Shown: positions 5,400-63,951 of the stretch, one piece after another | Position numbering within the stretch: position 1 is the first letter of the stretch | Layout: each line of letters starts with the position of its first letter | Source: an uncultured Myxococcales bacterium | Lineage (GTDB): Bacteria > Myxococcota_A > UBA9042 > GCA-2863065 | Length of the DNA stretch: 64,000 nt | Direction: 5' to 3' | Assembly: GCA_964545715.1 (NCBI GenBank) | Contig: CAZJHX010000029.1 | Coordinates: 6,215-70,214, forward strand | Program-made: the position numbers and the translations under genes | The notes under the pieces: generated by a model | Database searches by the model: none | Told to the model about the DNA's origin: nothing | Seen by the model: the letters and a program-made list of their open reading frames with translations, nothing else

Positions 5400-5432
5400 A
5401 GCGCGGCATTTTACACGACCAGGCGACCCAAA

Positions 5433-6977: not shown

Positions 6978-7119
6978 GACGACCCTCCAACCATGGCTAA
7001 TCGGCGCGACCCTACCAAGTACCTGCGATCACCGCAATCCGGCCCCCTTGAAACGGCCCCCTCAGTGTGGTTCAGTACCGTGTTCCTCTATCGTGGGCGG
7101 GGAGATTTAACCAACTCGG
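6978..7119. promoter_or_regulatory. 142-bp divergent intergenic region between the minus-strand OMP gene and the giant plus-strand gene; must hold both promoters
   Basis: Only non-coding stretch adjacent to the giant ORF. SD for the minus gene at 6983..6988. Candidate sigma70-like -35 TTGAAA at 7048..7053 with a weak -10 (TTCAGT 7071..7076, 17-nt spacer). GGGGAG at 7099..7104 is the only purine-rich SD-like element upstream of ATG 7120. No experimental support; motifs are weak. Confidence 0.3.
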
Positions 7120-10100
7120 ATGACCCCTGAAGACCTGTCTTCAGCCATCGCGACTCTACAGGCGTTGGCAAAGAAGAAGGACGCCGCAGGCCTGATCGAA
7201 AAGGCTGCGAGCGGTCCCGGAGCACTGCGCCGCCGTGCGTTGGACGCGCTCGTCCAACTGGGTCCCAAAGCCTCAAAAACGCTGGCCGACAAGGCCGCCA
7301 AAGGGGAGCCGCCCGAGCGCGCAGCAGCCATTGCAGCCATCGGATTGGCCGCGGGCAAGAACGCGGTCAAGCTGCTGTCAAAAGCCCTGACCGACGACGA
7401 TGTGGGCGTGCGCCGCGAGGCCGCGCTGGGCCTGGGACGGGTCGGTGACGACAAGAGCGTCAAGGCGCTGAACACCGCGCTGGAGGACACCTCGCCCAGC
7501 GTCCGTGCGTCCGCAGCGTGGGCCCTCTCACAGGTCGGCGGCGGCAGCGCCAAGGGACTGCAGCGCCTCGCCGGCTCCCGGTACGTGACCCTGCGGGCCA
7601 GCTCGCTGGCCGCTCTAGCGCGCGCGGGCGTGGACGACGTCGACGATGAGGTGATCGACGGCAGCCTGGCCGACGGGTCACGCGTCGTACGCCGCAACGC
7701 CGTGGCTCTGGCGTCCCTGCAGAATGTGGGCGCCTCCGCCCGGCTGCATCACTCGCTCAGCGACCGCTGCCCACTGGTTCGCCGCGAGGCGGCCGGCGGG
7801 TTCAAGGCCCCGGACGACGCGATCGAGAACGCCCTGGTCAGCCTGCTGCACTCCGATCCGGACCCCGAGACGCGCCGCGCCGCCGTCCGCAGCCTCGGCA
7901 GCCGCACCAGCGAACGCGCCCGAGACATGCTGGCTCGCGCGCTGGTCGACGACGACGACGCCGTGCGCCGCGAGGCCTCCCGGGTCCTGGAGGGCGATGG
8001 GACCAAGGAAGAGCAGCTGGTCGCCCGTCACTGGGTGCAGCAAGAGCGCTGGGACCGATGCCTCGAGGCCGGTGAGACCGCCGTGCCGGCCCTGCTGGAG
8101 GCCGCCGCCGCCCCCTCCCGGACACGCCGGGACGTCAACAACCGCATTCACGCCATCGGCGTGATCGGCGCTCTTGGGGCCAAGGCCGCGGTGAAGACCC
8201 TGCTGGCGCAGCTCGGCGAGCAAGACGGCCGTGTCCGGGCTGCGTGCCTGCAGGCGCTGGCGCAGATCGGCGACAAGAAGGCTCACGACGCGGCCCAGAA
8301 GCTGACCGCGGACCACGACGCCGCTGTTCGAGGTGCGGCGGCGCTGTGCCTCGGCGCGCTGGGCACCGACAAATCCGCCCAGTGGATCGAGCCTCTGCTC
8401 GCCGATTCAGACCCGGGTGTGCGCCGTGACGCGGTCCGCGCGCTGGGCCGGCTCGGTGCGCTGGACGTGCTCAGCGAGCTGACCCGTGCGCCTGAGCCGG
8501 ACATCCGGGCCGAGGCGATGGGCTTCCTGGGCGCCACGGGCAGCCTGGACGCGCTGGAGCCCGTGCTGATGCGCCTGGGCGACCCGGACTCCGCCGTACG
8601 ACAGGCCGCAGAGGCGGCGCTGCGGTCGCTGAGCTGGCTGCCGGTCGGGCTGCCGTCGGGTGCGCCGGGTGCAGGCTTCAGCCGATGGATGTCACGCCGG
8701 GACTGGGTCGAGGACAAGGACAAGCGCGACGCCCTGACCGTGCTGCGCGATGGGCTGAAGCACAAATCGCCGGCGTATCGCCGCGCGGCGATCGAAGCGC
8801 TGGAGGCGGAGCGAGACCTGGACGCGCTGCCGGCGCTGCGCAAGAGCCTGGACGACCCGGACGCCGACGTCCGCCTGACCGCGGCGATCGCCTGCGTGGC
8901 GCTTGGGGAGGCGACCGGCAAGGGGCCGGCGTGGGCGGCGTATCACATTCACAAGGGGCGCTGGGACGGCGCGGCGGCGCTGGGCGCGGATGCGGTACAG
9001 GCGCTCAAGACCCCGCTGGCGGCGCAGCGACCGTCGCACCGGCGCGAGGCGGCGCTTGCGCTGGGCAAGACCGGCGAGCTGGCCGCCGTGGAGCCGCTGC
9101 TGGGCGCGCTGGAGGACCCTGAGGACCCGGTTCGGCTGGCCGCGGTGCAGGCGCTGGGAGTCCTGGCGCGGACCGCCAAGAAGGCGCCGGTGGCGGACAT
9201 CGCGACGGCACTGGCGCAGCGGCTGGACGACGCGGCACGCTCTGTGGGCGACGAGGCGATCGTGGTGCTGGTCGACATGGGCAAGCCCGCCATCGACCCG
9301 GCGCTGGCGGCGCTGACCCAGCTTCAGGGGGCGGGGCGCGCGGGCGCGGCGGCGGTGCTGGGCGGCCTGGCTCACAAGCCGGCGGCCGGTGCGTTGGCGT
9401 TGGCCCTGGCTGACGACGACTCGCCGGTAGCGCGCGGAGCCTGTGCCCGGGCGCTGGGCGCCATCGGGGATAAGAAGCAGGTGCCGGCGCTGATCGGGGC
9501 CCTGGCGGACCGCTTCTACGGCGTGCGAGAGGCGGCTGCCGAGGCGCTGGGCGCGTGCGGCTGGAAGTCCGATCCCGCCGTATTGGCCGTGGCCGACAAC
9601 CTGGCTAAGGAGCGCTGGGAGTCGCTGTGGGATGCGCCGCCCAAGAGCGTGGGCGTGCTGCTGGCGTGCCTGGCGGACCCGTCGCGCAATCCGCTGTCCA
9701 ACCGACGGCGAGCGCGCGTCGCCGAAGCGCTGGGCCGCATGGGCGCCAAGGACGCAGCCGGCGCGCTGCGAGGTGTTCTAGGCGACATGATCCAGGAGGT
9801 GCGCTGGGAGAGCGCCAAGGCGCTAGCCCGCTTGGCCGACGCCGACAGCGTGCCCGCCCTGACCGCCGCGCTGCAGCACGCAGATCCTGAGACCACGCGG
9901 CAGGCCACCATCGCGCTGGGCGCCATGGCCGGCCAGGCGGCGGACGATGGGCTGGCGCTGGCCCTGACCAACGCCTTCGGGCCGACGCGGATGCACGCCG
10001 CCGTTCTCCTCGGAGAGCGCGGCGTCGACAAGGCGGCCGCCGGCCTGGTGGAGCGCCTGGACGACACACACGCGCCGACCCATGAGGCAGCGGAGATCGC

Positions 10101-13100
10101 GCTGGCGGCGCTGGCGGACAAGGCGCTGGCCGCGCTCAGTGCGGCGACCACCGCGACCAGCACGCAGATTCGGCGCACCGTCGCGCGGCTGCTGCGCCCG
10201 TTGAAAGACGCGGGCCAAGCACTGACGACGATGCTGGCCGACGGGGACGCGCAGGTCCGGCGCACGGCGGCGCATGCGGTCGGTGAGCTGGGCTACGCGG
10301 ACGCCCTGGCCGGCCTCTTTGTGCTGGTGCGCGACGGCGATGCCGACGTCCGGGCGGCGGCCGTGCTGGCGACCGCTCAGCTGAAGGGGTCGCGGTATAC
10401 GGTTGGGCGCGCGATGGCCGATCCGGCCTCCGACGTGCGCGGCGTGTCGCGCAAAGCCCTGGAGGTCCTCGGCCAGCCCGCGACTGAAGACGAGCTGGCG
10501 ATCGCGGACGCCGTAGGCCGCGGGGACGTGGACGCCGCCGCCGAGGCCGGCGAGCTGGGCCACGCCATGCTGGCACACGCGCTGACCACCCGGCGCGCAT
10601 CGCCGGCGTACAAAGCCAAGGTCTGCGCGCGCCTGTTGGGCTCCGCGCTCCCCGACTCCCTGGATGCGCTGGCCCTGGCCCTGGAGACCGGCGAGCAGGA
10701 CGTGGCGGTCGCGGCGGCCGAGGCGCTGGCGGATCCGTGCGCCGCGCAGTACTGGGACCGCATCGCTGCGATGACGCCCTTTGGCCGCGGCCCGGTGCGC
10801 GCCGCGGCGCTTCACGCTCTGGGCGGCATCGACCCCAAAAAGGCCGCGAGCGCGCTTATCGAGGGCGCCGCCGACCTTGAGCCCATCGTGCGCGTGCGCT
10901 CCACACAGGCGCTGGCGACCGTGAAGGGCAAGCCGTCGCAGGCGGCCCTGCTGTCGGGGTTGACTGACAAGCTGGCGCCGGTCAGGCGGGCGGCGCTGGG
11001 TTCGCTGGCCGCGCACGGCGACGGTGCGGTGATCTCACCCGTGCTGGCGCGGTTGAGCGACACGGACGGCGCCGTGGTGGCGGCGGCCAGAGCCACGGTC
11101 ACTGCGCTGGCGCCGAAAGCCCTCGCGGCTCTCATGGACGCGGTCATCACCGAGACGACGGCCGCGCGCCGGATGGCGGCGCAGGTGCTGGCCATCGACA
11201 AGAAGGCGATCGACTCGCTGGCGAGCGCCCTCCACGACGCCGATCCCCCCGTGCGCCGTCACGCGGCTGATGCGCTGGCCACGATCGGCAAGCCGGTGCT
11301 CAAGAACGACCGCGCGGTCGCGGCGCTGACCCAGTGCATCTGGGATGAGAGCTCCATGGTCCGCGCCGCCGCGGTCCGGTGCATGGGCGTGATCGGCGCC
11401 AAGAGCGCTGCCGTGGTGGGCGCCCTGGCGGATCAGGACGACACGGCCCGCGAAGAGGCCGGCACGGCGGTTCGCGCGCTCAAGCTGAAGACCTCCGCGG
11501 AGCTGATCAACGCGGCGGAGACGCTGCCGGTGGGCCTGAAGCTCGCCCCGGCGCTGGACCTGCGGGCCGAGGGTGTGCCGCTGGTCGGCCATGCGGTTCG
11601 GACCTACCGCGGCCTGCAGGACGAGAAGCTGGCGGCCATGGCGGCCATGGGCGAGATGCACGCCGCCGAGGCCATCGAGGTGCTGGTGGTCGGCCTGCGG
11701 TTCGACCTGGCCGAGATGCGTGTGGAGGCCGGCAAGGCGCTGGACGGCCACCCGCACGTCAAAGCCGCGACCGAAGCGCTGGTCGAGGCGACGCAGGACA
11801 GCGATGCGAGAGTCCGCGCGCTGGCGCTGAGCGCGCTGTCCGGGGCGGACGCGAAGATCGCGATCCCGCTGCTCGAGGCCGCGCTGCACAGCCCCGAAAA
11901 CGGGGTCCGTGAGGCAGCCGCGCGCTCGTTGGGGCGGATCCCCAAGGCCAGCCCGGGCCCGCTGGTGGCCGTGCTCTCCGATCGGGTCCCCGAGGTCCGT
12001 CGCGCGGCCGCGCGATCCCTGGGCGCTCTGGAGAAGGGCAGCGACGCGGTCACCGAGCTGCTACAGCGCTTTGAGGACGACGACCAGCAAGTGCGGGAGG
12101 CGGCGGTCGCGTCGCTGGCCGACCTGATCGAGGGCGCGCGGCAGACTCTGATCGACGCGATCGGCACCGGCTCTCCCGAGCTGCGCCGCAACGCGGTCCG
12201 GGCGCTTAGTGGTGACAAGGCCGCGGCCGCGCAGCTGATCGAGTGTCTGCACGACGGCGACACCGCCATTCGCTTGAGCGCCGTGCGCGCCGTGGGCCGA
12301 CTGGGCATCGACGCGATCGAGCCGGTGGTCTCTCTGCTGCACGACGAGGACGCGGAGGTGCGCAGCGACGCGGCGGTTGCGCTGGGACGCCTGAAGGGCC
12401 CGGCGGCGGTGCTGATCGGGGCGCTGGCGGACCAGGATACCGGGGTCCGGATCGGCGCCGGCGGCGCGCTGCACGCCCTGGGCACGCAGCCCACGGCCGC
12501 CCAGCAGGACGCGGCGCGTGGACTGCGCGAGCGTCAGCTGTTCAAGGCGACCGACCTGGCCGACGATGGAACCGCGCTGATCGCACACGTGCTGTGGAAC
12601 GACCTGGCAGGCGGGCTGGTGTGGCGCCGCTCCCTGGCCACGGCGCTGTCGGGTCGCCAAGATCCGGTGGCGATGACCGCGCTGGCGGGCGCAACCACGG
12701 ACACCGACCCGGCCATGCGCGTGCTGGCGTGCCAGGGGCTCGGCCATCCCGCCGCCAAGCCATGGTCTCCGGCGCTGCTGGAGGCGTGTCGGGACCCGGC
12801 CGCCGAAGTCCGCCAGGCGGCGCTGTTGGCGGTGGCCGCATCCACGCCCGTCGACGGCGCCGGCGTCATGCTGGCTGGTCTGAGCGATCCCGACGGCGCG
12901 GTGCGGGCGACGGCCGCGACTGCGCTGGGCAACGCGCGCTGCATGGACGCGCTCAACCGGCTGGCGACAGCGGTTCAGGGCGCGGATCCGTTGCTTGCGG
13001 CCGCTGCGGCAGAGGCGATCGGCAGCATGGGCCCCGAGGCGCTGCCGACCCTGAGAGAGGCGCTGAAGACGGATCGGGTGGACGTGCGCCTGGCGGCCAT

Positions 13101-16100
13101 CCGCGGACTGGCGCTGCAACCGGACGCGGTGCCCGACCTGACCGCATGTCTGGACGATCCCGATGAGACCGTTCGCGCCACCGCGGCCGATGCGCTCACC
13201 GAGCCTGCCGACGCGACCCTGACGCGCCTTATCGCCTTGACGTCGACCGATCCGGACGCCGGTGTTCGGGCGGCGGCCGTGCGCGCCCTGGGTCGCAGCA
13301 AGGACGACGCCGTCCGGGCGCCGATTATGAGCGCGCTGGGTGACCGCGCCCCGCAGGTCCAGCGCGCGGCCGGTGAGTGTCTGCGCCCCGAGGACGCCGG
13401 CATCGCCCCGGTGCCGGCGTGGATCAACCACGTCTTCTGGGACCGCTTGATCGGTCTGGGCGAGCCGGTCATCGCCGCGCTCGTGCGCGTGGCGGCGCAG
13501 CCGGCGGAGGATGACGGCGGCAAGCGCGCGGGCGCCGTACGGGCGCTGGTCAGCGTGGCGACGGCGGGCGGTGATCAGAAGGTCAGCGCAGGCGCACGTG
13601 ATGAAGTCATCGACGCGCTGCGCGGCCATCTGGACGATAGGACGGTCGCGGTGCGGCACGCGGCCGCGCTGGGCCTGGGGGCGCTGCAGGACAAGGCGTC
13701 GATCGGGTCACTGGCCATGCGCTTTGGCCGAGCGGATGACGCCGACCGACGCGTGCTGGCACAGGCGCTGGCCATTTTGGAGGCGGCCGAGGCCCTGGCG
13801 GCGGCCGTGACCGACGAGGACTCCGAGGTCCGACTGGCGGCGGCGCGCGGCGTGACCGCCCCGAGCCACCTGAGCACGCTGCTGGCGGACGCGGTCGCCG
13901 ACGTGCGCGCGGCGGCGGCTGACCGCATGGCGGCGCTGGGCCTGTTGGACGAGCTGCAGCGGGCCGCGGGCGACCAACAGGCCATGGTGCGACAGGCGGC
14001 GGTGTGGGGTTTGGGCGGTGTCGGGGGCAAGGCGGAGAAGACGCTGCTGCCGATGCTGGCCGATGCGGACGCCCGGGTGCGCCTGGCCGCGGTCGACGCC
14101 TGTGCCCGTCTGGCGCTTGTGGGGTCCGCCGAGACGATCGCCGGGCTACTGACCACCGACACCGCCGACGGCGTCCGCATGGAGGCGGCGCGCGCGTTGG
14201 AGACGCTGGCTGCGGGACGCAAGCCCAAGAAAGGCGAGAGGGACCCGGCGGCGTGGGCGCTGGAGCTGGCGCTGGTCGATCAAGACGCCGATGTGGGTCG
14301 GGCGGCGACCGCGGTGATGCACGCGCTCGGCCTCTCGCCGGCGTCCACAACGGCCGCCATCGCCGACGCGGTGTTGTACGAGCGGTGGCGCAAGCTGCCC
14401 GAGATCGGGCTGGACATCGTGCCGTTCTGCGCGCGCATTCTGGCCGAGAAGAACCTGGATCCGCGCTCCGTAGGACGCCGGACCGGAGCGGCCGTCGCCC
14501 TGGGGGATCTGGAAGATGCCGCCGCATTTGACGCCCTGGCGCACGCGGCTGGTGATGGTGCGACCCGGGTGCGCGAGGCCGTCGCGTACGCTGTAGGCCG
14601 GCTTGGGGAGCCCCGCGCTGCCGAGGTGCTGGCCGATCTGATGACCGACCCCAACCCAGCGGTTCGCGAAGCGGTCTGCCGCGGTTGTCGACCGCAGGGT
14701 GGCGAGGCGGTCGTCGCGATCTTGTCCAGCCTGATGGAAGACGCCGAGCGGGCGGTCCGCATCGCTGCCTGTGTCGCGCTGGCCGGACCCAAGACCTTCG
14801 CGCTGGACAAGGTTGTGGAGATGCTCACCGACCGTGAGCCCGAGGTCCGAATCAAGGCTGCAGGGCTCATCGCGGAGATGGGCGACCCGGCGGGAATTCA
14901 GCCGCTGATCGACGCGCTGGGCGACGCGTACGCCCATGTTCGCTACCACGTGCGCAAGGCGCTGCTGGCGCTGGGTTGGACGCCGGTCGGGTACAAGCAC
15001 GACGCGGACGACAAGGGCTATGCGGTCTGGACCAGCCACGGCGAGTGGGACGGCCGCGCCGAGGGCCCGTCCGAGCGGCTGATGCTGGAGGCGGGGCTCA
15101 GCGATCCCAACCCGGTCGTGCGACGAACGGCGGCCGAGGGCCTGGCGGAGCTGGGCGACGTGAGCAGCGCGGAGGCGCTGACGGCCGTGCTGACCGACCC
15201 GGACCGAGACGTGCGGCGGGTTGCGGCGCGCGCGCTGGAGTCGCTGGCCGCGACTCCTCCGTCTCGCGAGCTGCTGGCGGTTCAGTTGGTGGAGATCGGA
15301 AAGATCGCGGAGGCGGTCAATCAGTGTGGCGACGCGGCCGTGGCGCCGCTCGTGCGCGCACTGGCCGAGACTGACGACGGACCGCGCGCAGCGGCCGCGT
15401 GGGGCATTGGGCTGCTCAGCCTGGCCGAGGCGGGCGACGCCGGGACCGACGCCCTGAGGGCCGCTCTTGTCGACGCCGGGCCGGGCGTGCGACAGCAGGC
15501 GACTGAGGCGTTGGGGCGGCTGGGCGCCCAGGTGGCGGCAGCCGATATCGCCGAACGCCTGGCGGACGATGACGCGTCTGTCAGAGGGGCGGCGACCACC
15601 GCGCTGCTGGCCCTGGGCACCGACGGCACGGAGCAGCTCTTCGGCGGTTTGAGCGCGGAGTCCTCGCTGGCCCGGGCAGCGGCGGCGGAAGGCGTCAGCG
15701 CGCTGAAGACCGGGGCCAAGACCGCCGAAGCGCGCCTGATCGAGCTGCTGAGCACTGACCCCGGACACGCGGTCCGGGCGGCGGCTGCAGCGGCGATCGC
15801 GGAGATCCCGACGGATCCGGCTGCCCAGGCGCTGGGCGCGGCGCTGGCGGCGGACGACTCCGAGGTCGTGCGCGCTCGCATCATCGCGGCGCTGGACGCC
15901 AACACGCAGGAGGGCGCGAGCGGCCTGAGCCCGGCTCACGACGCCGTTCAGCCGGCTCTCATCGGGGCTTTGAGCGACGAGTTCGGCTCGATTCGAGAGG
16001 CGGCCCTGAAGGTGCTGCAGGCCGTCGGCTGGACTCCCGAGGGCCCGGAGATCCAGGCAGCGATGCTGATCGCCAAGGGCGACTGGCGCGGTGTCGTCGC

Positions 16101-19100
16101 ATGCGGCGAGGCCGCAGCGCCGATGCTGGCTCGCGTGACGCAGGAGAGCGGCAACGAGAAGCTGAGCGTGCTGCGCCGAGCGGGGGCCCACTCGGCGCTG
16201 GGCAACATCGGCGGCGCGGTCGCAGCGGAGGCAGTGCTGGCCGGCCTCAGCGATGTCGGCGGACCGGCCCGTGCCGAAGCGGCGCGTGCGGCCGGCGCCA
16301 TGGGTCTGAAGCCGGCAGCCGACGTGCTTATCGCGCTGTTGGACGACCCGATCGACGACGTGCGGCGTACGGCGGCCTCCGCATTGGGCGCGCTGGGCCA
16401 CAAGCCCGCCGCGGTCCGCCTGGAGGAGCTGGCGCTGGGCGATCGCGATCCGGGCACCCAGGCCGCCGCAGCCACGGCGCTGGCGGCGATCGGCGTGACG
16501 TCGGTACTGATCAAGCGGCTGGCCGATCCGGACGTCTCGGTACGGCTGACCGCGGCACAGACGCTGGGGGACCTGGACGATCCCGCCGCGATCGACCCGC
16601 TGATCCAGGCGATGGGCGACTCGGTCGCGACAGTGCGGGCGGCGGCTGCGGCGGCGTTGGAGAAGCTGCACTGGGTGCCGATCGGCTTCCGGGCGCAGGC
16701 CGCGGACACCGGTTACTCGCGCTGGCTGACCCGCACGGAGATCGTCTCGCGGTACAAGCCGGATGCCCCCGCTGAGGCCATTCTGGCCGGGGAGCTCAAG
16801 AGCGAGGATGCCGCAGCCCGCCGCTGTGCGCTGGAAGCAGTCGCCCGCGCACGGATCACGGCGCACGTGCCGCCGGCGTTGGGGCTGTTGGACGACGCCG
16901 ACCGCTGGGTTCGGGCGGAAGCTGCCGAGACGCTGCGTATTCTGGACGCCACGCCGACCGAGGGCGTGCCGGCCGCGCTGGCACGCGTGGCGATGGGCGA
17001 CATGGACGATGCTGCGGCGTTGGGTGAGATCGCAATCGCCCCGCTGGCCCGCGCGCTGGCCGAGCATGCTCCGAACGATCGCCGGCGTGCTGCCACCGCG
17101 CTGGGCGGGCTGAGCGGCAAGGCCGTCGCGGCAGCGCTCTCAGCTGGGCTGAGCGATCCACAGGCAGAGGTGCGCGAGGCCGTTGCGGCGGCGATGGGTC
17201 GGGCAGGCGTCGGCGTGAAGACGCTGCCGGCAGCGCTGGGTGATGCCGAGGCGCGAGTCCGGCTGGCCGCGGCCGCAGCGCTGGCGACTCAAGGCAAGGA
17301 CGGTGTCGCGGCGCTCGCGAGCGCGTGCGGGGATGCGGTGGGCGACGTGCGCGCGGCCGCAGCAACCGGCCTGTCGGGAGTCGCGACGTCGGCACACCTG
17401 ACCGTGCTGAGCGGCCTGCTGGCTGACGACGCCGACTCCGCCGCACGGGCGGCCGCGGCGCGGGCGCTGGGCGGCCTGGGCAAGGACGCCGCCGAGGCGC
17501 TGTCGACGGCGCTCGCGGGCGACTGGGACGAGAGCGTGCGCGCCGACGCAGCCACCGCGCTGGGTCAAGCCGCGGGTGCGGACGGCAGAGACGCGCTGAT
17601 CGGCGCGCTGGGCGACCGGTTCGACGCCGTTCGCAGCGCCGCTCTGACCGCACTGGAGTCGACGGGCTGGCGCGCCGAGGGCGCGATCGCCCAGGCGCTG
17701 GTGGCGCTGGCGCATGAAGACTGGCGCACCATGGGCTCGGTCGGCGCGCCGGCGGTCCCGCTGCTTGTCAAGGTCGCCGCGGAGACGGGCGACGACCTCG
17801 GCAGCATAGAGCGGCGCGTGGGCGCGCTGGATGCGCTGGCCGAGATCGGCGGCGAGACGGCGGTCGCGACGCTGACGAGCGCGCTCGTCGACACGGCCGG
17901 GCCGGTGCTCAGGGCCGCATTGCGCGGCATCGGTCGACACGCCAACCTGGTGGATCGCGCAGTGCTGCCGACGGTCCGTTCGATGCTCGTGGACGACGGA
18001 CGGACGCAGGTCCGCGTGTCAGCCGCTATCGCCATGGGGCGGCTGGGCGACAAGGAGGCGGCGGCGCTGCTGACGACGGCCGCTGTCGACGACCCCGATC
18101 CCCACGTCCGCCTGGCCGCCGCCACCACGCTGGCCGATCCCAGCATCAAGGTCATCGGGCTGCTGGTCGCCCAGCTGTCCGACCCCGACCCGGCCGTCCG
18201 CTCCGGCGCCGCAGCCGGGCTGGGGCGCAGCGAGAACCTGGACGCGGTCGATCCGCTGATCACGACCCTGGGCGACGCCACGGTCAGCGTGCGCCAGACG
18301 GCCGCCGACGCGCTGATCAACCTGGGCTGGACCACGATCGGCGTACGCCAGGCGTCATCCGACGCGGGGGTGAGCCGCTGGCTGACCCGCACGGAGCTGA
18401 CGGAGCGATACGGCGCCGACGCCACAGTGACCCAGCTGCTGCTGGGCGAGCTGGCCCACGCGGACGACACCGCGCGACGCGGTGCGGTGGAGGCCATCGG
18501 TCGCGGTTATCACACCGACCTCAGCGAGCCGGTCACCGAGCGCCTCGACGACGTCGACCGCTACGTGCGCCGCGAGGCCGCGGAGACCCTGGCCCGCTTC
18601 GGCAAGCTGCCCACGCCGGATCAATGGCGCGTGCTGGGCACTCCCGACGCCGAAACGCCGACGCTGGGCCCGGCCGCATTGGCACTGGCCGCGGTGGCGA
18701 TGGGCAAGATGTCGCTGGCGGCGCGGCTCGGTGCTGACAGCGTCGCGCCGCTGGGCCGTGCGCTGATCGAGCACGACGGCCGCGAGCGACTGCACGCGGC
18801 GCAAGCGCTGGGCAGCATGGCCGCAACCCCGCCCGCGGACGCCAAGGCAGCAGCGGCGCTTGGCGCCGGTATCATCGGCGCGCTGCGTCCGGGACTGAAC
18901 GACGCCGAGGTCGGCGTCCGAGTGGCCGTCGCCGAGGCGCTCACCGCATCGGTGGCGTTTGGCGGTGGCGACAAGGCGCTGGCCGAGATCGCAAGCGGAC
19001 TTGGCGACGCGCTCCGCGACTCGGAGCTGCAGGTCCGGCAGGCGGCGGGTGGCGGGCTGGCCTCCGTGGCCAAAGCGGGTCTCGCCACGCTGGAGAGCGC

Positions 19101-49100: not shown

Positions 49101-52100
49101 GACGCAGCGGCTGAGCAAGGACACGGAGAGCCACGTGCGTGCGGCGGCAGCCACGGCGCTGGGCCAGGTGGTCGAGCCCAAAGCCGGTGGATCGGCGCTT
49201 GTCAGGGCGCTGGAGGGCGACGCGGAGAGCGGTGTACGAGCCGCGGCGGCGCGGGCGCTGGCGGCGTATGGACCAAAGCTGGCCCAACCGCCGCTGATCC
49301 ACGCGCTGGGCGACGCGGCGCGCAGCGTGCGGCAGACCGCGCTGGACGCGCTGGGTAGCCTGGGGTGGACGCCCCAGAGCGACGTTGCGGCGGCGATCGT
49401 GGCGCTGGCACAAGAGGACTGGAGCGGCCTGGCCCGGTTGGGTGAGGTCTCCATCGGCCTGCTGGCGCGCGTTGTTCGGGAGCAGGGTACAGACAGCGGC
49501 AGCGTCGATCGTCGTGCCGGGGCGGTGACGGCGTTGGCGGAGATCGGCGGGAAAGCCGCGGTCGCCGCGGTCGAGCCGGGACTGCAAGACGTCGCGGGGC
49601 CGGTGTTGATTCGGGCCGCTCGCACGATGGGCCTCCACGCGAGCGTGGCCGGCGCGGCTGTGCGGCCGCCGCTTCGCGCGCTGTTGGAGGACCCGCGTTG
49701 GCCGGTGGTGGTCGAGGCGTGCGTGGCGCTGGGCCAGCTGGGCGATACCGATGCGGTCGCGGCGCTGACCGAGCTGGCGGCGGATGACGAGTCGGCGCAG
49801 GTGCGGCTGGCGGCGGCCACAGCGCTGGCCAGTCCCAAGCTGAAGCAGACCGGCTTCCTGATCGAGCAGCTGGCGGCTGAGGATGCGGAGATCCGGGCGG
49901 CGGCGTGCCGAGCCCTGGGCCACAGCGAGGACCCGAACACCATCGATCCTTTGATCGGCGCTCTGGGCGACGCCGTTGCGGCGGTCCGCACCGAAGCCGA
50001 GACGGCGCTGACCGCGCTGGGGTGGACGCCGGTCGGGGTCCGAGCCGCGGTCGCGGATCAAGGGTACAGCCGCTGGATGCTGAAGGCGGAGCTGGAGGCC
50101 CTGTACGGCGCGGCGGAGACACAGACCGAGCTGCTGCAGGCAGCCTTGGCGGCCCCCGAGGCCACATCGCGACGATCCGCCCTGGAGGCCCTGGCGCGGT
50201 CGAGAGAGACCGGCGCGCAGCCCGCGATCACGGGGCTGCTCAACGATGGGGACGTCTGGGTCCGGCGGGAGGCCGCGCAGACACTGGCGCGACTGGCGCA
50301 GACGCCGAGCGCCGGAACCGGGCTGGCGCTGTGGCACGTCGCCATGGGTGACATGGCCGCGGCGGCCGCGATAGGCGTCGACGCGATCGCGGCGCTGGCG
50401 CGCGTGCTGGTGGAGCACGAGACCGAAGAGCGGCGGGCGGCGACGCCGGCGCTCGGGTCGTGTCCGGCGAAAGCCGAGGGCGACGTGGCGGCCATCGTCG
50501 CCGCGCTGGCCGGGGCGACTGGTGACGAGGATGCGGAGGTGCGCCTGGGCGCGGCGCGGTCGCTGGGTGAGGTCGGCGCGAGGCCCTCTGCGGCGAGCGC
50601 GGCACAGGCGATCGCGACAGCGTTGAGCGCCGGCCTGGCGGACGCTGAGCTGACAGTGAGGCTGGCGTGCAGCCAGGCGCTCGCGCGGGTACCGGCCGAG
50701 CCGGGCGGGGCGAAGCTGAACAAGGCGTTGGAGCATGCAGACGCGCGGGTCAGGTACGCGGCGCTTGTGGCGTTGCGCGGCGCGCCGGCGCTGGCGGATG
50801 CGGCCCGACTGCGCACGTTGGTTGCGGACGACTCGGACCCGAGCGTACGCACGGTCGCGACGGCCGCCCTGGGGGCGCAGGCGCAGGATGCGGCGAATAC
50901 GCTGGCGCTGACCACAGCCCTGACCGCCGACGGGTCCGAGATGGTGCGTGCGGAGGCCGCGACCGCCGTGGGCACAACCGGCGACACGGCCGGACAGACC
51001 GCCCTGATCGGCGCGCTGGGTGACCGCTATGCGGAGGTCAGAACCGCCGCCGTGAGCGCCCTGGCCACGCTGGGGTGGACCCCGGACGGGGCGACAGGTG
51101 CGGCCATGATCGCCCTGGCCGAGCAGGACTGGCAGACGCTGGGAACGCTGGGGGCAGCCGCGGTGCCCATGCTGGTCGGCGTTGTGGCTGAGTCAGGTGA
51201 TGATCTGCCGGATGCACAGCGACGGGTCGGCGCTCTGAGCGCGCTGGCCGAGATCGGCGGCAAAAACGCGGCGGCCGCGATGGTGCGGGGCCTGAACGAC
51301 AACAGCAGTATCGTCCGGGCGATGGCGGCGCGGTGCATTGCGCGACGACACGCCGACCTCGACGAGTCGGTTCTGCCGCGGCTGCGCACCCTGCTGGCGG
51401 ACGACCCGTTCTACAAAGTGCGCATCGGCGCGGCCGTGGCGCTGGGTGTGTTGGCCGATCAAAAGGCCGTGAAGCTGCTGCGCGCGGCAGCGGAGAGCGA
51501 CGCGGACATGACCGTGCGCTTTGCCGCCGCGGAGGCGCTGGCGGCTCCCGGGCTGAAGGAGACCTCCTTCTTGATCGAGCGGCTGTCAGATCCCGACGCC
51601 GATATCCGCCAGGCGGCGGCCGCCGGGCTGGGGCGCGCGGACGACCCGGACGCGATCGACCCCTTGATCGGCGCGCTGGGCGACGCCTTTACGCTGGTGC
51701 GCGACGCGGCGCAGAGCGCGCTATCGACGCTGGGCTGGATGCCGGTCGGCGTACGCGCGTCGGCCGGTGACATCGGGTACTCACGGTGGCTGACGCGACT
51801 GGAGCTGGAGGCTCGCACCGGGATCAAGCTGGACCAGCAGAAGGCGCTGGCAGCAGAGCTGGGCAACGATGACGCCGGGATTCGCCAGTGCGCGATCGAA
51901 GGTCTGGCGCGGTGGGCGAACCCGCAGCACGGTGCCGCGATCAAGCCGCTGTTAGACGACCCCAACCGCTTTGTCCGCACCGAGGCCGCACAGACCCTGG
52001 CCGCGCTGGGCGTGGCTCCGGACGCCGGGGCAGACGGGGCGCTGCAACACATCGCGCTGGGTGCGATGGCCGCGGCCGCGGCGCTCGGCGACGTGGCGGG

Positions 52101-55100
52101 CCCAGGGCTGGCGCGCGCGCTGGCGGAGCACCCGGCGGACGAGCGGGCGGCGGCGGCGGCGGCGCTGGGCGGGCTGTCGGCCAAGGTAGGCGCGGCAGCC
52201 TTGAGCGTGGCGCTGAGCGACGAAGACGAGATTGTGAGGACGACGGTGGCGGAGGCGATCGGCCGGATCGGCCAAGCGCCGGCGGGCAAGCCGACACCCA
52301 AGACGGCAGCGGACGCGGTAGCGGGCCTGGCCGCGACGCTGTGCGACCCGGTCTTCGGCGTGCGACGAGCGGCGGCGCTGGCGTTGGCGGGCTGCGGCGC
52401 GGACGGCGCCAAGACGCTGGTGCGCGGGCTCGATCACACCGAGCAGACAGGCCGTGAGGCGGCGTGCATCGGACTGGCGGCGACGGGCGAGGTCAAGGTG
52501 GCCAAGGCGGTGGCGGCTCAGCTTGCCAACGATACGGCAGTGCCGGTGCGCATCCAGGCCGCGGTGGCGCTGGGCCGGCTGGTGGACCCGAAGAGCGGCG
52601 CCCCGGCGCTGATCACCGCGCTGGATGCGGACCCGGGCTCGACCGTGCGAACGGCGGCGGCGCGTGCGCTGGGCGCGTACGGGGCAAAGACGGCTCAGCA
52701 GCCGCTGATCCAGGCGCTGGGCGACCGGTCGCGGTCGGTGCGGCAGATGGCGCTGGACATACTGGCCGAGCTGGGCTGGGTGCCCAAGGATGAGATGGCC
52801 GAGACCGTGGTCGCGCTGGCCCGCGAAGACTGGCCCGCGCTGGCGGCGCTGGGCGCGCATGCCGTGCCGCTGCTGGCGCGCGTGATGACGGAGACGGGCA
52901 CGGATGCGGGTAGCGTCGAGCGGCGGGTGGGCGCCGGGCGAGCCCTGATCGAGATCGGCAGCAAGGCCGCGATGAAGGCGGTGGAGCCGGGCCTGTTGGA
53001 CGTCGCGGGGCCGGTTCTGCGGGAAGTCGCCAGAGGCCTGGGCCGGCGTGCAGAGGATGCGCCGAGGACGGTGCTGCCGCATCTGCGCGCGTTGCTGGAC
53101 GATCCCCGCGAGCAGGTTCGGGTCGAAGCGGCGGTAGCGCTGGGCAAGCTGGGCGACGCGGACGCGGGACCGATGCTGGTCATTGCCGCGACCGACGACG
53201 AGGACGAGCAGGTGAGGCTGGCGGCCGCCACGGCGCTGGCGAATCCGAAGCTGCGTCAGGGCGGGTTCCTGGTCGACCAGCTGGGCTCGTCCGATCCCGA
53301 GATTCGTGCGGAGGCGGCGCGCGGGCTCGGCGACAGCGAGGATCCCGACGCGATCGATCCCCTGATCGGCGCGCTTGGAGACGCCACAGCGACAGTCCGC
53401 GGGGCCGCAGCGGACTCGCTGGCGATGCTGGGCTGGACGCCGGTGGGCGTGCGCGGAAACGTGTCGGACGCCGGCTACGGACGCTGGATGCTCAAGGCCG
53501 AGTTGGAGGAGCTTCACGGCGCGGGCAAGACGCAGCAGGCCATGCTGTTGCTGCAGCTTGCAGCCCCCGAGGACGTGGCGCGGCGGTCCGCGCTGGAAGC
53601 CCTGGCGCGCGCGGGGGCGGTTGATGCCGTGAGCGACGTCGTGCCGCTGTTGAACGACGTCGATCGCTGGGTGCGCGCGGAAGCGGCTGACACGCTGCGG
53701 GCTCTGAAGGCCCTGCCGGCGGACGGCGCAAACGCCGCGCTGGCGCTGGTTGGACTCGGCCGCATGGATGAGGCGGCGGCGCTGGGCGCTGTGGCGATCA
53801 CGCCGCTGGGCCGGGCGCTGGTAGAAAACGATGGGGACGCGCGCGAGGACGCGGCCGTCGCGCTGAGCACGCTGTCCTCCATGGCGGCGGTCGACGCGCT
53901 GGCGCCGGGTCTCAACGACACGCTGGACGCTGTCCGACAGGCCACTGCGGGCGCGCTGGGCAGCGTCGCGGCCGGGTCGGACAAGAAGGCGCACGCCGGC
54001 GCGGCGACAACGCTGACGCCGGCGATGGCGGACGTGACCGAGCCGGTCAGGCTGGCCGCGGCGGGCGCTATGACCCGGTGTGGCGTCCCGGGCGCGGAGG
54101 CGCTGGCCACAGCGTGCGAGGACGGACGCGCTGAGGTACGTACAGCTGCGGCCGTCGGTCTGGGGCTGCTGGGGGACGCCAAGAAGGTGCCGCTGCTGGA
54201 GCGGCTGGTGCTGAAGGATGCGGACCCGGTTGTGCGGGTCACGTCGGCGTTTGCTCTGGGCCGCCTCGGCAAGGCTGCGGCCAAGCCGCTGATCACCGCG
54301 CTGAGCAAAGACCCCGACGAGACGGTGCGCGCGATGGCCGCGGCCGCGCTGGGACGCACCGGCGCCAAAGAGGCGACCGAGCCGTTGGTCGGGGCGCTGG
54401 GCGACCGATTCCAAGAGGTGCGGGATGCCGCGCTGGGCGCGCTGGATGCCCTGAACTGGCGGCCGGATGGCGGTACGGCGGACGCGATCGTGGCCCTGGC
54501 GCGCCAGGACTGGAAGGCGCTGGCGCGCGTCGGGGCGGAGGCGGTGCCGCTGCTGGAGCGCGTGGTCACGGAGACCGGCGACGATCACGGCAGCGTGGCG
54601 CGACGCTCGGGCGCCGTGCGCGGTCTGTTGGTGCTGGCGGCGGACGAGGACATGGGCAAGGCAGCGCGCAAGGCGGCGGTCGCGGCCGTCGCATGCGGGC
54701 TCGATGACGAGCATCGCGGCGTGCGCGGACAGGCCGCGCGGGGGATCGCTGCGCATCACACGCTGGCGAGCCGGAAGGTGCTGCCGCGACTGAGGGCGCT
54801 GCTGACCGAGGACGCGTTCGCCCAGGTGCGCGTCGGAGCCGCGCTGGCGCTAGGGGTCATGTGCGACAAGGACGCGGTAGGTGCGCTGTACGGCGCTGCG
54901 GAGTCCGACCCGGACGTGCTGGTGCAGTTTGCCGCCGCCGAGGCCCTGGCGAACCCGGGCCTGAAGGAGACGCGGTACCTGATCGAGCGGCTGACCGACG
55001 CGCAAGCCGAGATACGCCAGGGCGCGGCTGAGGCGCTGGGACGATCGGAAGACGAGCGGGCGATCGACCCGTTGATCGGGCTGCTGGGGGACGCGGTCGC

Positions 55101-58100
55101 GCCGGTGCGTGATGCGGCAGCAGCGGCGCTGTGGCAGCTGGAGTGGATCCCGATCGGCGTGCGCACACACGTGTCGGACGAGGGCTTTGCCCGCTGGGTC
55201 ACCCGCGCCGAGCTGAGCGCGCGCACGGGCGTTGAGGGCGACCAGCAGGCGATGCTGATCGCGGAGCTGGGCAGCGCAGACCCGGGGGTACGGCGCACAG
55301 CCATCGAGATGCTGGCGCGCTGGAAAGACCGTGGGCACGCCGCCCAGATCGAGCCGCTGCTAGACGACGTCAGCCGACACGTACGACTGGGCGCTATCGA
55401 CGCGCTCGAGCGCCTGGACGCGGTACCCGTGAAGGGGCGTGAGGGCGCGTTGGCGCACGTCGCGCGCGGCCGCATGACCGAGGCCGCCGCGCTGGGCGAC
55501 GTCGCCGGCTCGGGCCTGTCGCGTGCGGTCAGCGAGCATCCTGAGGGAGAGCGGGCGGCCGCGGCCGTGGCGTTGCGCAACCTGTCGGCGGGCGAGGGCG
55601 CACGAGCGCTGGCGGATGCGCTGCGGGACAGCTCGGCGCGGGTTCGGCTGGCGGCCGCCGGGTCGCTGGGGTTCCTGAAGGCCGAGTCGGCCGCGCTCGG
55701 CCTGGCGCTGAGCGATGCGGACGTGTTTGTACGACAAGCAGCAGCGCAGGCGCTAGGCGGGATGGGCGACGAGGGCATCACGCACCTGCGGTCCGCGCTC
55801 ACGCACGAGGACACCGGCGCACGGCAGGCGGCGGCGACCGGGCTTGGAGCGGCAGGTGACGCCAAGAGTCTGGACGCGCTGCTCGAGCGGCTGAGCGTGG
55901 ACGGCGACAGCGAAGTGCGCACCGCGGCGGCGATCGGGCTTCTGGCGCTGCGGCAGGCGGTTGAGAAACCCAAGCCGGTCGACAAGGCCGCTGAGCCGGC
56001 GCTGATCACGGCCCTGACGGACCAGGACGAGACCGTGCGAGTGGGCGTGGCGAGCGCGCTGGCGGTCTACCCGGGCAAGACGGCTGAGGCCGCGTTGATC
56101 GACGCGCTGGGTGACAGCGCGGAGGCGGTGCGTCGAACCGCCCTGGCGTCCCTGGCAGAGCGCGGGTGGGTGCCGCAGGACGATGTGGCCGAGGCGATCG
56201 TTGCGCTGGCCGCCGAGGACTGGACGGCGCTGGGCGCGGCGGGCCAGGTGGCGGTGCCGTTTGTGGAGAAGGTGCTGGCCGAGACCGGCGACGATCCGGT
56301 GGCTGTGGCCAGGCGCGTGGGTGCAGCCAAGGCCCTGGGAGACATTGGCGGGGCGACGGCGACCGGCGTGCTGGAGCGCGCACTGACCGACTCGAGCGCG
56401 GCCGTGCGCGCAATGGTGACGCGCGGAATCGGACACAACGCCGCGGTCGCATCCGCGGCGGCGGCCCCGGTTTTGCGGGAGCTGCTGGCCAACGATCCGA
56501 TGGCGACGGTGCGCGTGGGGGCGGCCACGGCGCTGGGCATATTGGGCGACAAGGCGGCATCGCAGCTGCTGAGCGATGCGGCCGAGACCGACGACCATCC
56601 CGGGGTGCGTTTTGCCGCGGCGCGTGCGCTGGCCAGCCCTGAGATCGGGCAGGTGCAGCCGCTGATCAAGAAGCTGAGCTCGCCGGACGAGGAGATCCGC
56701 GCCGGTGCGGCGGAATCGCTGGGACACGCGGGCCGGCTCGAAGGCATCGACGCGCTGGTCGGCGCGCTGGGCGACGCGACCGCCGCTGTGCGGCAGAAGG
56801 CGACCGAGGCGCTGGGACGGCTGTCCTGGGTGCCCGTCGGCCTGCGCGGGGCGCCGGACGCCGAGGGCTACAGCCGGTGGCTGACCCGGACGGAGTTGGT
56901 GCAGCGGACGGGCATCGACGGCGATCAGGTCGACATGCTGGTGGCGATGCTGGGCGCTGACGACGCATCCGTGCGCAAGGCCGGGCTGGAGGCCTTGGGT
57001 CGCTCGCGGGCGGCAGACCAGGTGGCCGCCATCGAGCCGCTGCTGGAGGACACCAGCGAGCATGTCCGCCGGGAGGCCGCCGACACCCTGGTGGTGTTGC
57101 AGGCCGACGTGAGCGGCGCGTCGACGCGAGTGGCGCTGGGCGACTTCGCTGGTGCCGCCGCGGCGGGCGGTCGGGCCCCGCTGATCCGCGCCATGCTGGA
57201 GAACGTCTCAGACGCCGACCGGAGCGCGGCGGCGACAGCGCTGGCGGCGGTGGGCGGCGATGATGTAGCCACGGCGCTGGCCCGAGCGCTGGGAGACGAA
57301 TCAACAGCAGTACGCGTGGCGGCAGCCGTATCGCTTGGGAGGCTCGAGGCCACGCTGGCGGCGCCGGCGCTGCAGGCGTTGCTGGCCGATTATGAGGCGG
57401 ACGCTCGAGATGCCGCCGCGACAGCGCTCACCCGACTGGGCGAGGCCGGGCGGAAGGTACTGATCGGCGGACTGAGCAGCGCGGCAGCCGAGGCGCGGGC
57501 AGTCGCGGCGCGGGCGCTCGGGACGCTGGGACCGGTCGCCAACGCGGCGGACGGCCCGCTGGCCGAGGTGCTGTCGACGGACTTCAGCTACGCGGCGAGA
57601 CTGGAGGCGGCCAACGCGCTGGCCCACATCGAGGGTAAGACCAGCGGAGAGGCGCTGCTGGAGGCGGTGCAGGACGATCCGGAGCCGACGGTGCGAGCGG
57701 CGGCGGCGCGTGCGATCGGCTACCGCGACATCAAGGGCGCGGAGGACGTGCTGGTGCCGGCGCTCGGAGACGTGCTCAGCGACGTGCGCGCGGCGGCGAC
57801 GGCAGCGCTGTACGCCATCGGATGGCAGCCGAGTGACGCGGTGGGCGCCGGCTTGATCGCGCTGGCCCAGAGCGACTGGGACACGTTGGTGGAGATCGGC
57901 GTGCCGGCGATCCCGCTGGTGACGCGGGTGATCAGCGACCAGGACACCGACGCGGACAGCGTGAACCGGCGAGTAGAGATCGTCGGGGCGCTGGAGCGCA
58001 TGGGCGCGGTGGCCGGCGAAGCGGTGGCGCTGGGCCTGGACGATCTCTCGCACAAGGTGCGGGCCGTGGCGACGCGGACGGTCGGACGGCTGGGTCACAG

Positions 58101-63918: not shown

Positions 63919-63951
63919 GTTGCGCCATCGAAAACCGCTCCGCGGAAAAAC

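Follow-up and report, generated by a model that had tools for sequence, protein, structure and literature searches.

The window analyzed here, a stretch of 64,000 nucleotides (nt) from an uncultured Myxococcales bacterium (GenBank assembly GCA_964545715.1, contig CAZJHX010000029.1, positions 6,215 to 70,214), contains a giant gene for a protein of 17,353 amino acids (aa) that is nearly all HEAT-like repeat, followed directly by a second gene for a smaller partner protein of the same repeat type. It is virtually certain that the two are a real, intact and conserved HEAT-like gene pair. The repeat itself is familiar, whereas the scale, the higher-order module into which the repeats are grouped, the partner gene and the evolutionary behavior of the array are undescribed in the literature searched. 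The best explanation as a whole, namely a conserved gene pair whose large product would serve as a bulk structural or tethered scaffold, is in our judgment about equally likely to be right or wrong.

Coding signal, assembly integrity and repeat type

Translation of the giant open reading frame (ORF) meets a single stop codon, the terminal one, and the remaining two forward frames over the same interval contain 450 and 216 stops. Base composition predicts a stop about every 60 codons, giving a probability of ~e^-289 for 17,353 stop-free codons. GC content at codon positions 1, 2 and 3 is 0.80, 0.56 and 0.85, respectively, and the third-position value (GC3) stays between 0.83 and 0.90 across all 1.5-kb blocks. 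For the start codon, support comes from an orthologue in a different organism (locus L020, GC 64%), which is 50% identical over 890 aa and has the same N-terminus (MNAEDLTSA..KKKD, compared with MTPEDLSSA..KKKD in the giant). Dozens of minus-strand ORFs of 150-970 aa lie within 7107..59943; all are in the mirror frame, in which antisense codon position 1 falls on sense position 3, and those inside the giant gene have a first-position GC (~0.85) above their GC3 (~0.80), which identifies them as shadow ORFs and not genes. Such shadow ORFs of GC-rich coding DNA could mislead gene callers at this locus.

Tandem Repeats Finder reports no high-identity repeats in the gene outside its last 130 nt. 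Internal copies reach at most 78% identity over ~120 nt and ~66-68% over 3 kb in self-BLASTN, and the longest exact repeat is 41 nt; with copies this divergent, an assembler had no reason to collapse or expand the array. The same sequence was recovered in three other assemblies. Scaffold_2740 of ENA ERZ23498945 matches window positions 1..15019 at 99.987% identity and ends inside the gene at aa 2633, on the JGI 3300008954 contig Ga0115650_1000723 (78,635 bp) a gene of 17,361 aa was called, followed by one of 1,578 aa, and the JGI 3300007512 contig Ga0105016_1007534 holds the final 930 aa of the giant together with the partner gene. Over the stretches compared (window 49206..64000 and 56406..64000, respectively), both JGI contigs are 99.7-99.8% identical to the window, the differences being three single-nucleotide polymorphisms and one 24-nt in-frame indel that adds two KPKA units to the tail repeat; the TAAGTG junction between the two genes is the same in the window and both contigs. 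In that repeat, (AKPK)n at 59051..59172, one 24-nt unit differs between assemblies (17,353 versus 17,361 aa; loci L039 and L040); in this stretch, the sole one of low complexity in the gene, either natural length polymorphism or slippage during assembly could be the cause.

It might still be argued that the gene is an artefact, be it a mis-assembled repeat, a chance open frame or a decaying pseudogene, given that high-GC DNA is rich in long spurious ORFs, as the antisense frames in this very window illustrate, and that every source is a metagenome assembly. Set against this are the probability of the open frame, a codon-position GC pattern of coding type, the lack of near-identical repeats able to mislead an assembler, the fit of all 25 full modules to the module profile from end to end without a frameshift, the recovery of the same gene elsewhere, and purifying selection on framework positions (described below). 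We consider an artefact next to impossible, and a chance ORF or assembly error was rejected on the open frame, the divergent copies and the other assemblies. The initial annotation of this DNA, made from the letters and a list of open frames, was therefore right to call the frame a real gene.

Pfam was run over the whole giant protein in nine chunks of 2,000 aa (1,353 aa for the last one). HEAT_2 (PF13646) scored 413-561 bits in each chunk against a cutoff of 27.7, HEAT_PBS (PF03130) scored 35-86 bits against 20.9, and the only families matched along the protein were HEAT_2, HEAT, HEAT_EZ, HEAT_PBS, Cnd1 and similar HEAT/ARM-type repeats. The unit is 31 residues long according to the lag-31 periodicity, with the consensus LGDPDAAVRAAAAEALGALGD, and ~550 such helical hairpins of the alphaRep/PBS-lyase type make up the protein. 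Profile matching of the module alignment against the PDB returned alphaRep proteins as the best hits (E 1e-98 to 1e-18), followed by deoxyhypusine hydroxylase, CpcE/CpcF, PP2A-A, Rpn2 and YibA. The giant thus consists of stacked ~31-residue two-helix hairpins forming an alpha-solenoid; its Pfam score and its fold place it in the HEAT_2/HEAT_PBS (alphaRep-type) repeat superfamily. The HEAT_2 scores and the top PDB match show that the PBS-lyase/HEAT-like assignment in the initial annotation was right; its estimate of ~550 hairpins and ~1.8 MDa is borne out by a calculated mass of 1.755 MDa, and the search of units against HEAT_2 and HEAT_PBS that it proposed, with the search for remote homology, returned HEAT/ARM-type matches only. 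Its likening of the array to eukaryotic scaffolds fares less well, the repeat being of the prokaryotic alphaRep/PBS kind and not canonical eukaryotic HEAT.

NCBIfam was searched with one module and the first 627 aa of the giant, and PADLOC with the first 1,200 aa, one pair of modules (types A and B, see below) and the partner. No hidden non-HEAT domain emerged from the Pfam, NCBIfam and PADLOC scans, and all curated family models stayed under cutoff. The NCBIfam equivalogs NblB (55-96 bits versus a cutoff of 300), CpcE (46-50 versus 330), CpcF and CpeY were all below threshold, and no phycobilisome gene is present in any locus read. Pfam found no Ig-like, cadherin or RTX domain in the giant and none of the KS, AT, ACP, C, A or T catalytic domains of polyketide synthases (PKS) and nonribosomal peptide synthetases (NRPS) along its 17,353 aa, in agreement with the earlier statement that this is not a PKS/NRPS, RTX or Ig-type giant. 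An enzyme or secretion domain is likewise missing from the Pfam and NCBIfam scans of the giant, and no P-loop or effector domain was seen in the giant, its partner or the neighboring genes.

The protein is rich in Ala (24%), Leu (12%) and Gly (9%), with Arg, Asp and Val at 7.5% each, and is strongly acidic (isoelectric point 5.0, net charge -522). A Kyte-Doolittle scan of the giant found no membrane-like hydrophobic segment, as had been claimed. The claimed lack of a signal peptide also agrees with the conserved N-terminus (MxxEDLxSA...KKKD), which does not look like one, as judged by eye only. Taken together, these two observations suggest that the giant is probably cytoplasmic, although a secretion signal at the C-terminus would not necessarily be recognizable in the sequence.

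Super-module architecture and predicted structure

The autocorrelation of the giant peaks at lags of 31, 553, 1163 and 2331-2393 residues. Beyond the single hairpin, three recurring landmarks, GYSRW(L)xRxELE, GRMxEAAALG and ALVALAxEDWxxLxxLGxxAVPxLxRV, define a super-module of ~553 aa, for which a profile was built from an alignment of 22 modules; the resulting layout is given in Table 1, where module positions are those of the profile. Each full module consists of a beta-hairpin connector (GVRA..GYSRW) and about 35 helices. From aa ~4332 onward, type A modules (~552 aa) take turns with type B modules (~570-654 aa), with identities of 59-64% for A-A, ~54% for B-B and ~45% for A-B comparisons.

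Inserts of 39-73 residues with a high content of Lys, Pro, Glu and Ala (for example DKKKKKKKKKGKKDE and EEEAKKPKKGKKAKKAKKAEPAP) are found in seven B modules in a row, six of the inserts after module position 95 and one after position 151; positions 179 and 306 have smaller ones. A hydrophobic motif, PDxF(F/L)G in its general form, opens most of the inserts at position 95. It is borne by the inserts starting at aa 4989, 6169, 7335, 9666 and 10873 (nt 22084, 25624, 29122, 36115 and 39736) in the variants APDEFIGI, VPADFLGV, APHFFLAD, APDGFFGV and APDGLFGM, and the insert at aa 8502 has just VTPTFSG. Judging from these sequences, each disordered loop seems to have a short linear motif at its base.

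AlphaFold2, given the paralogues as its alignment, modeled one A module (aa 9018-9570) at a mean predicted local distance difference test (pLDDT) value of 94.1 and a predicted template modeling score (pTM) of 0.76; the model has 35 helices and a small N-terminal beta-hairpin formed by the GVRA..GYSRW motif. The model of two adjacent modules (aa 7855-9017) gave a pLDDT of 87.5 and a pTM of 0.44, and its pLDDT falls below 50 only at residues 658-683 (aa 8512-8537), inside K-rich insert 4. These predictions of one unit and of a unit-unit junction, both proposed in the initial annotation, fit well-folded modules whose mutual orientation would not be fixed. If ~550 hairpins were stacked continuously at an estimated ~1 nm each, the contour length would be, as a rough estimate, a few tenths of a micrometer.

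The description of the protein as a "pure" HEAT solenoid is therefore nearly correct, and has to be amended for the beta-hairpin connectors, the disordered K/P/E-rich inserts and the basic tail. A 552-aa unit had been mentioned in passing; the A/B two-module super-repeat, the polybasic loops and the small conserved family to which the pair belongs were missed.

Table 1. Features of the window and layout of the gene pair in related loci (nt coordinates refer to the window; aa numbers to the giant protein unless stated otherwise)
Feature	Coordinates	Strand	Remarks
MatE transporter	761..2128	-	
VgrG-related OB-fold protein, 311 aa	2125..3060	-	Phage_base_V Pfam E 4e-17; NCBIfam VgrG_rel under cutoff
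344-aa protein, no Pfam match	3163..4197	-	
MoeA	4194..5399	-	
514-aa protein, no Pfam match	5433..6977	-	weak TIGR04551 match, 71 bits vs cutoff 300; not adjoining the L020 orthologue
Intergenic region upstream of giant gene	6978..7119	+	divergent neighbor 5433..6977 (-)
Giant coding sequence, large subunit of HEAT-like solenoid pair	7120..59181	+	17,353 codons + TAA, ATG start
N-terminal region, aa 1-2183	7120..13668	+	HEAT-like throughout (HEAT_2); super-module matches degenerate, all partial, 19-108 bits
Nearly complete module (~80%), aa 2184-2620	13669..14979	+	module positions 105-557, 186 bits
25 consecutive full super-modules (~550-654 aa), aa 2621-17118	14980..58473	+	positions 1-557 each, 409-749 bits
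Central block, eight A-B (or B-A) pairs, 1,163-aa super-repeat, aa 4894-14302	21799..50025	+	from autocorrelation and identities
K/P/E-rich insert 1, aa 4989-5040	22084..22239	+	after module position 95
K-rich insert 2, aa 6169-6208	25624..25743	+	contains DKKKKKKKKKGKKDE
K-rich insert 3, aa 7335-7373	29122..29238	+	
K-rich insert 4, aa 8502-8542	32623..32745	+	predicted disordered (AlphaFold2)
K/P/E-rich insert 5, aa 9666-9734	36115..36321	+	
K/P/E-rich insert 6, aa 10873-10930	39736..39909	+	
K/P/E-rich insert 7, aa 12112-12184	43453..43671	+	after module position 151, not 95
Last partial module, aa 17119-17297	58474..59010	+	positions 1-180, 143 bits
Basic low-complexity (A/K)(K/P) tail, 56 residues, aa 17298-17353	59011..59178	+	DNA is a 24/12-nt tandem repeat
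In-frame TAA between giant and partner	59179..59181	+	TAAGTG; 59182-7120 = 3 x 17,354
Partner coding sequence, 1,578 aa, GTG start, all HEAT-like (HEAT_2)	59182..63918	+	100% match to P0092
Gene pair, window			large 17,353 aa, ends 180, K-rich tail; in-frame TAA then GTG; partner 1,578 aa, 180 to 90
Gene pair, L002 (ERZ24794647 NODE_8842)			large at least 7,799 aa (contig end), ends 179, K-rich tail; in-frame TAG, 24-nt gap; partner 1,591 aa, starts 180
Gene pair, L006 (GCA_964343445.1)			contig has only the AAKSAKS-rich tail of the large gene; 4-nt overlap, other frame; partner 1,597 aa, starts 182
Gene pair, L022 (SXGT01820513.1)			large ends 179, no basic tail; ~85-nt overlap, other frame; partner 1,116 aa with N-terminal PEAVTA-rich linker
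Gene pair, L042 (P0182)			large 4,363 aa, complete, ends 186, low-complexity tail; 4-nt overlap; partner 1,100 aa, starts 181
Gene pair, L044 (ERZ24794648 NODE_5826)			large 7,878 aa, gene call inside 40.6-kb contig, K/A/P tail; ATGA overlap; partner 1,584 aa, 182 to 91, 59% identical to window partner

Partner gene, family and evolution

The partner takes up the array exactly where the giant leaves it, at module position 180 on both sides of the junction, and consists of positions 180-557, two full modules and positions 1-90. Orthologues of 1,583-1,683 aa with 53-59% identity were found in five protein clusters beyond the window's own, and in all four of the clusters with a locus read they sit directly 3' of a large HEAT gene. 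The split at module position 179-186 is kept in the five related loci of Table 1, all of which share with the window the ~553-aa super-module with its GYSRW beta-hairpin and its GRM..AAALG and ALA.EDW..L..LG motifs. The family pattern is a large gene that ends at position ~180 with a low-complexity tail, followed by a gene of 1.1-1.7 kaa that runs from ~180 to ~57-91. K-rich tails equivalent to that of the giant are present in L002, L006 and L044.

The partner lies in the same frame directly after the TAA, the module resumes at the exact position of the stop, and in L002, too, just one in-frame TAG and a gap of 24 nt separate the genes, all of which would also suit one gene of 18,932 codons, expressed by read-through of a TAA or interrupted by a sequencing error or a recent nonsense mutation. 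The chances of this are very slim. The TAAGTG junction is identical in two further assemblies, the genes overlap with a change of frame by 4 nt in L006, L042 and L044 and by ~85 nt in L022, and a low-complexity tail or linker is always found at the junction, with the split being independent of frame. An in-frame stop in two lineages and a frame change in four argue that the split is old and real and that read-through is unlikely. The 52-kb ORF that had been described as a single unit is intact as such, but the array does not end with it and runs on in the same-frame partner ORF.

The ends of all partners fall at module position ~57-91, that of P0175 (a relative of 4,673 aa that has no partner) at position 92, and most K-rich inserts are at position 95. 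The agreement between these ends and the insert site points to a natural unit boundary there; judged from the sequences, the structural unit seems to have natural boundaries or permissive loops at positions ~90-95 and ~180. A head-to-tail arrangement, in which the N-terminus of the giant would complete the C-terminal partial module of the partner, was dropped because ~90-95 is such a boundary; it is also weakened by the module phase at the N-terminus of the giant, which is just weakly defined. In some lineages the low-complexity linker is on the N-terminus of the small protein (L022 9990..10400 in P0188; aa 25-91 in P0003) and consists of acidic, proline-rich PEAVTA or PAEPAP repeats, instead of the basic tail on the large protein in the window. 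With the linker on either protein and either acidic or basic, its place and charge are not conserved, whereas the split site is.

A search with the module profile through 1.84 billion representative proteins returned 196,154 generic HEAT matches and full-length module matches in just ~12-15 clusters. The latter include P0175 and P0182, both complete, and several fragments that fill short contigs, labeled [quoted passage not shown], Myxococcales or Deltaproteobacteria. The large and small pair is a small family in uncultured high-GC bacteria, the carrier metagenome-assembled genomes being labeled Myxococcota, Myxococcales or Deltaproteobacteria. Within this analysis, it is these labels that place the organism of the window in Myxococcota, and the weak TIGR04551 match of the 514-aa upstream protein may be one more taxonomic lead. 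A scan of GTDB species representatives with two module-derived back-translated patterns gave ~30%-identical generic HEAT only and no giant ORF, which is weak evidence of absence because these patterns are narrow; a scan of JGI metagenomes added one further relative (L022), the remainder being generic. P0176 (6,021 aa), P0216 (7,137 aa) and P0259 (7,989 aa) combine HEAT with membrane segments, AAA ATPases and other domains and are of a different kind. At the locus of P0175 (L041 4650..21375, GCA_053991815.1), where no small partner is present, an XPB/Rad25-type helicase follows after 6 nt and then a DUF790 (Bax1-like) gene, and a separate 517-aa HEAT protein is encoded on the strand opposite P0175. 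No description of an all-HEAT giant in Myxococcota or of a large and small pair was found in the literature searched, preprints on giant genes included.

The C-terminal ~3,200 aa of the giant are collinear with L002 (49-51% identity) and L044 (52%), and the best match of each of the last four L002 modules is its positional counterpart in the giant. This positional orthology indicates that the distal modules predate the split of the lineages and have not undergone concerted evolution. The central A modules share 59-64% aa identity at a synonymous divergence (dS) of 0.89-1.05, and orthologues share 51-53% at 1.06-1.2; overall, paralogues are 54-64% identical versus 45-53% for matched modules of two organisms. 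The excess in length over L044 (17,353-7,878 = 9,475 aa) is ~8 x 1,163 aa. From the closer relationship of the paralogues and this excess we infer that the central block (aa ~4,894-14,302) likely arose by lineage-specific tandem duplication of the two-module A-B unit.

The overall ratio of nonsynonymous to synonymous divergence (dN/dS) is 0.33-0.40 for orthologues and paralogues alike. Upon classing orthologue codons by column conservation among the 25 paralogues, it is 0.15 at framework columns (75% identity), 0.74 at intermediate ones and 0.95 at variable ones (21% identity). Rough as these numbers are, they show selection that holds the fold and the module landmarks, with no module-specific surface detectably conserved.

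Proposed role and comparison with known systems

In the mechanism that we tentatively propose, the giant would act through its bulk physical properties, that is, length, stiffness, charge and multivalency. It would be a long, semi-rigid and negatively charged solenoid serving as spacer or scaffold, which its flexible polybasic loops and tail may tether to a polyanion, either DNA in the nucleoid or an acidic membrane; alternatively, the polybasic segments could drive self-association with the giant's own acidic body. The small protein would be an end piece or adaptor of the large one. The giant is not an enzyme. K/A/P-rich polybasic tails bind DNA in other high-GC bacteria, an example being the histone H1-like C-terminal domain reported for CarD of some myxobacteria.

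An unlikely alternative is that of a multivalent platform for specific docking, in which each module has its own partner surface as in huntingtin, mTOR or PP2A-A. The alphaRep/HEAT fold is a classic protein-binding surface, the modules are all distinct (at most 64% identical), and the last four are positionally orthologous with L002. What would be expected of such a platform, conserved module-specific surfaces, is contradicted by a dN/dS of ~0.95 and 21% identity between orthologues at the module-variable columns; the number of modules also differs several-fold among relatives, with complete large proteins of 4,363 aa (P0182), 7,878 aa (L044) and 17,353 aa (window), and the loci read have no conserved client genes nearby. 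With selection confined to the framework and a length that varies, a bulk structural or tethered scaffold is favored, and the giant is probably not an array of sequence-specific docking sites. The same two observations weaken the "eukaryotic-style mega-scaffold", docking-platform and "ruler" readings offered in the initial annotation.

Several points weigh against the scaffold. The pTM of 0.44 for two modules may merely reflect an elongated shape and a shallow alignment (12 paralogues). dS is near saturation (~1.1-1.4), so that the dN/dS figures are rough, and the ~0.95 at variable columns may partly be due to saturation or diversifying selection instead of neutrality. The internal K-rich loops are known from this organism alone, the orthologues having been compared without their middle parts, and among the tails that of L022 is not basic and that of P0175 is acidic. 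Finally, gene neighborhoods are not conserved and lend no independent support to any role.

The genes around the pair differ in every related locus. Upstream of the giant (Table 1), no sigma-70 promoter or intrinsic terminator consensus was found, and the window contains no Rfam family and no tRNA. The 5' neighbor in L020 is an acetyltransferase, the 5' neighborhood of the giant not being conserved there. Downstream of the pair, as seen in L039, are genes for a BCCT transporter, a TSP_3-repeat protein, a Cys-rich protein and a pentapeptide-repeat protein; the 3' neighbors elsewhere are a pentapeptide protein and a Mo-oxidoreductase (L002), a sulfatase and ActD (L044), a spermine-synthase-like protein (L042) and the XPB/DUF790 genes of P0175. 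The sole shared gene is the pentapeptide-repeat gene of ~240-260 aa, present in three loci (L039 20346..21065, L002 14792..15574 and L006 6355..7038, all on the minus strand) within ~6 kb downstream, with Pfam Pentapeptide E-values of 1e-41 to 1e-60 and 60-71% identity. Pentapeptide-repeat proteins of the Qnr/MfpA type are DNA mimics; the occurrence of this gene near the pair may be plain synteny. Assigning a function from the gene neighborhood was rejected, as no conserved partner operon was found in the loci read.

A secreted or surface giant for adhesion or predation, like the RTX adhesins or the HEAT giants of Omnitrophota, would agree with the predatory habit of Myxococcota, with the usually extracellular location of giant bacterial proteins, and with HEAT_2 being the commonest domain in the predicted extracellular parts of the Omnitrophota "archaeovorins". 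A VgrG-related gene 4 kb upstream and the secreted-type repeat neighbors (TSP_3, Dicty_CTDC) of related loci also speak for it. This is nevertheless distinctly unlikely for a protein without a membrane segment, with an N-terminus that by eye is not signal-peptide-like, and without enzyme, Ig, cadherin or RTX domains. No type I (T1SS) or type II secretion system genes adjoin it in any locus; the VgrG-like gene is not kept beside the L020 orthologue, and no other type VI secretion or phage-tail gene is found beside it in the window.

Very unlikely, too, is a component of conflict or defense, such as a fast-evolving sensor or decoy akin to the HEAT/ARM protein of type XIII retrons or the repeat arms of STAND NTPases. 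PADLOC did return partial matches to HEAT-ARM_XIII (PDLC02919; E 1e-39 to 1e-57), the variable surface positions evolve fast, and P0175 is followed by the XPB-type helicase and the DUF790/Bax1-like gene. The PADLOC matches, however, are 5-10 fragmentary stretches of repeat-to-repeat similarity, no reverse transcriptase, WGR protein, NTPase or effector domain is present in the protein or its neighbors, and the window has no Rfam RNA (the presence of a retron RNA model in that library was not confirmed). The internal repeats are old (dS ~0.9-1.05) and not recently homogenized or hypervariable, and every lineage has a different gene context.

The bulk structural or tethered scaffold can be extended to a more specific picture, which we consider unlikely: the pair would be a new kind of bacterial intracellular mega-structure, a sub-micrometer acidic alpha-solenoid filament or spring that the small subunit caps or extends, with the last partial module of the large protein (1-180) completed in trans by the first partial module of the partner (180-557), periodic polybasic loops anchoring it to the nucleoid or inner membrane, and its length tuned by duplication of module pairs. 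If true, it would be a prokaryotic counterpart of the eukaryotic HEAT scaffolds of chromosomes and cytoskeleton.

Among the giant proteins known from bacteria, most are surface adhesins, secreted toxins, multi-enzyme assemblies or PKS/NRPS lines. The giant of the window, which weighs 1.75 MDa, shows no membrane segment or evident signal and is made of a repeat of protein-design grade (alphaRep type), would be a different category, as would its dedicated partner, its clear history of duplication and a selection that acts on the fold and not on the surface. It raises the question of what use ~half a micrometer of solenoid is to a bacterium. As a natural experiment, it also bears on the length to which a repeat array can grow, with modules that are experimentally tractable one by one. 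Should the giant turn out to organize the cell interior or the nucleoid, the bacterial toolkit of cytoskeleton and chromatin would gain a new class; if not, few single-fold proteins on record are larger, and pipelines for assembly and annotation would still have a useful test case in it. Public data already hold the gene: JGI has an unnamed gene call for it, and there are many fragments labeled "partial HEAT repeat", into which most public copies have been cut.

The initial annotation could not assign the protein to any characterized bacterial system, and this stands: bilin lyases, adhesins, PKS/NRPS, Omnitrophota giants, type XIII retrons and STAND systems all failed to fit when compared. Giant RTX/BAP adhesins have an adjacent T1SS, of which no gene adjoins the giant. 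Type XIII retrons combine a reverse transcriptase with HEAT-ARM and WGR proteins, and the window has neither a reverse transcriptase nor a WGR gene. STAND/NLR-like systems join a NACHT/NB-ARC-type NTPase to an effector, neither of which is present in the giant, the partner or the neighbors. The Omnitrophota archaeovorins are giant metagenomic ORFs in which HEAT_2 is the most frequent domain; they are membrane-anchored, with sparse Pfam domains and with HEAT mixed with enzymes (including a glycosyl-transferase), AAA ATPases and transmembrane segments (West-Roberts et al. 2023, doi 10.1101/2023.11.21.568195). The giant, in contrast, is HEAT-like end to end, has no transmembrane-like segment and no enzyme domain, and comes from another phylum; P0176, P0216 and P0259, as 6-8 kaa multidomain HEAT proteins, are generic HEAT matches to the module profile.

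PP2A-A, importin-beta, the condensin subunits Cnd1/Cnd3 (HAWKs), huntingtin and mTOR resemble the giant at the level of the repeat only. Eukaryotic HEAT/ARM scaffolds have 0.6-3 kaa, irregular repeats and conserved interfaces, whereas the giant has regular repeats of prokaryotic type and unconserved surfaces. Titin is comparable by analogy only, as a megadalton chain of similar modules with super-repeats, P/E/K-rich disordered segments and a module number that varies between lineages; it is made of Ig/Fn3 beta-domains without homology to the giant, for which no sign of elasticity or filament association was seen. The closest known relatives are those of the alphaRep/PBS family (MTH187, YibA, CpcE/CpcF, NblB), from whose natural consensus the artificial alphaRep proteins were designed and which have the same 31-residue two-helix unit with the consensus ..DPD..VR..AA.ALG..G... 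Its known members are small binders, lyases or adaptors of 4 to ~20 repeats (100-600 aa); the giant, with no bilin-related context, differs from them by its ~550 repeats, its 553-aa higher-order module, its beta-hairpin connectors and its polybasic loops.

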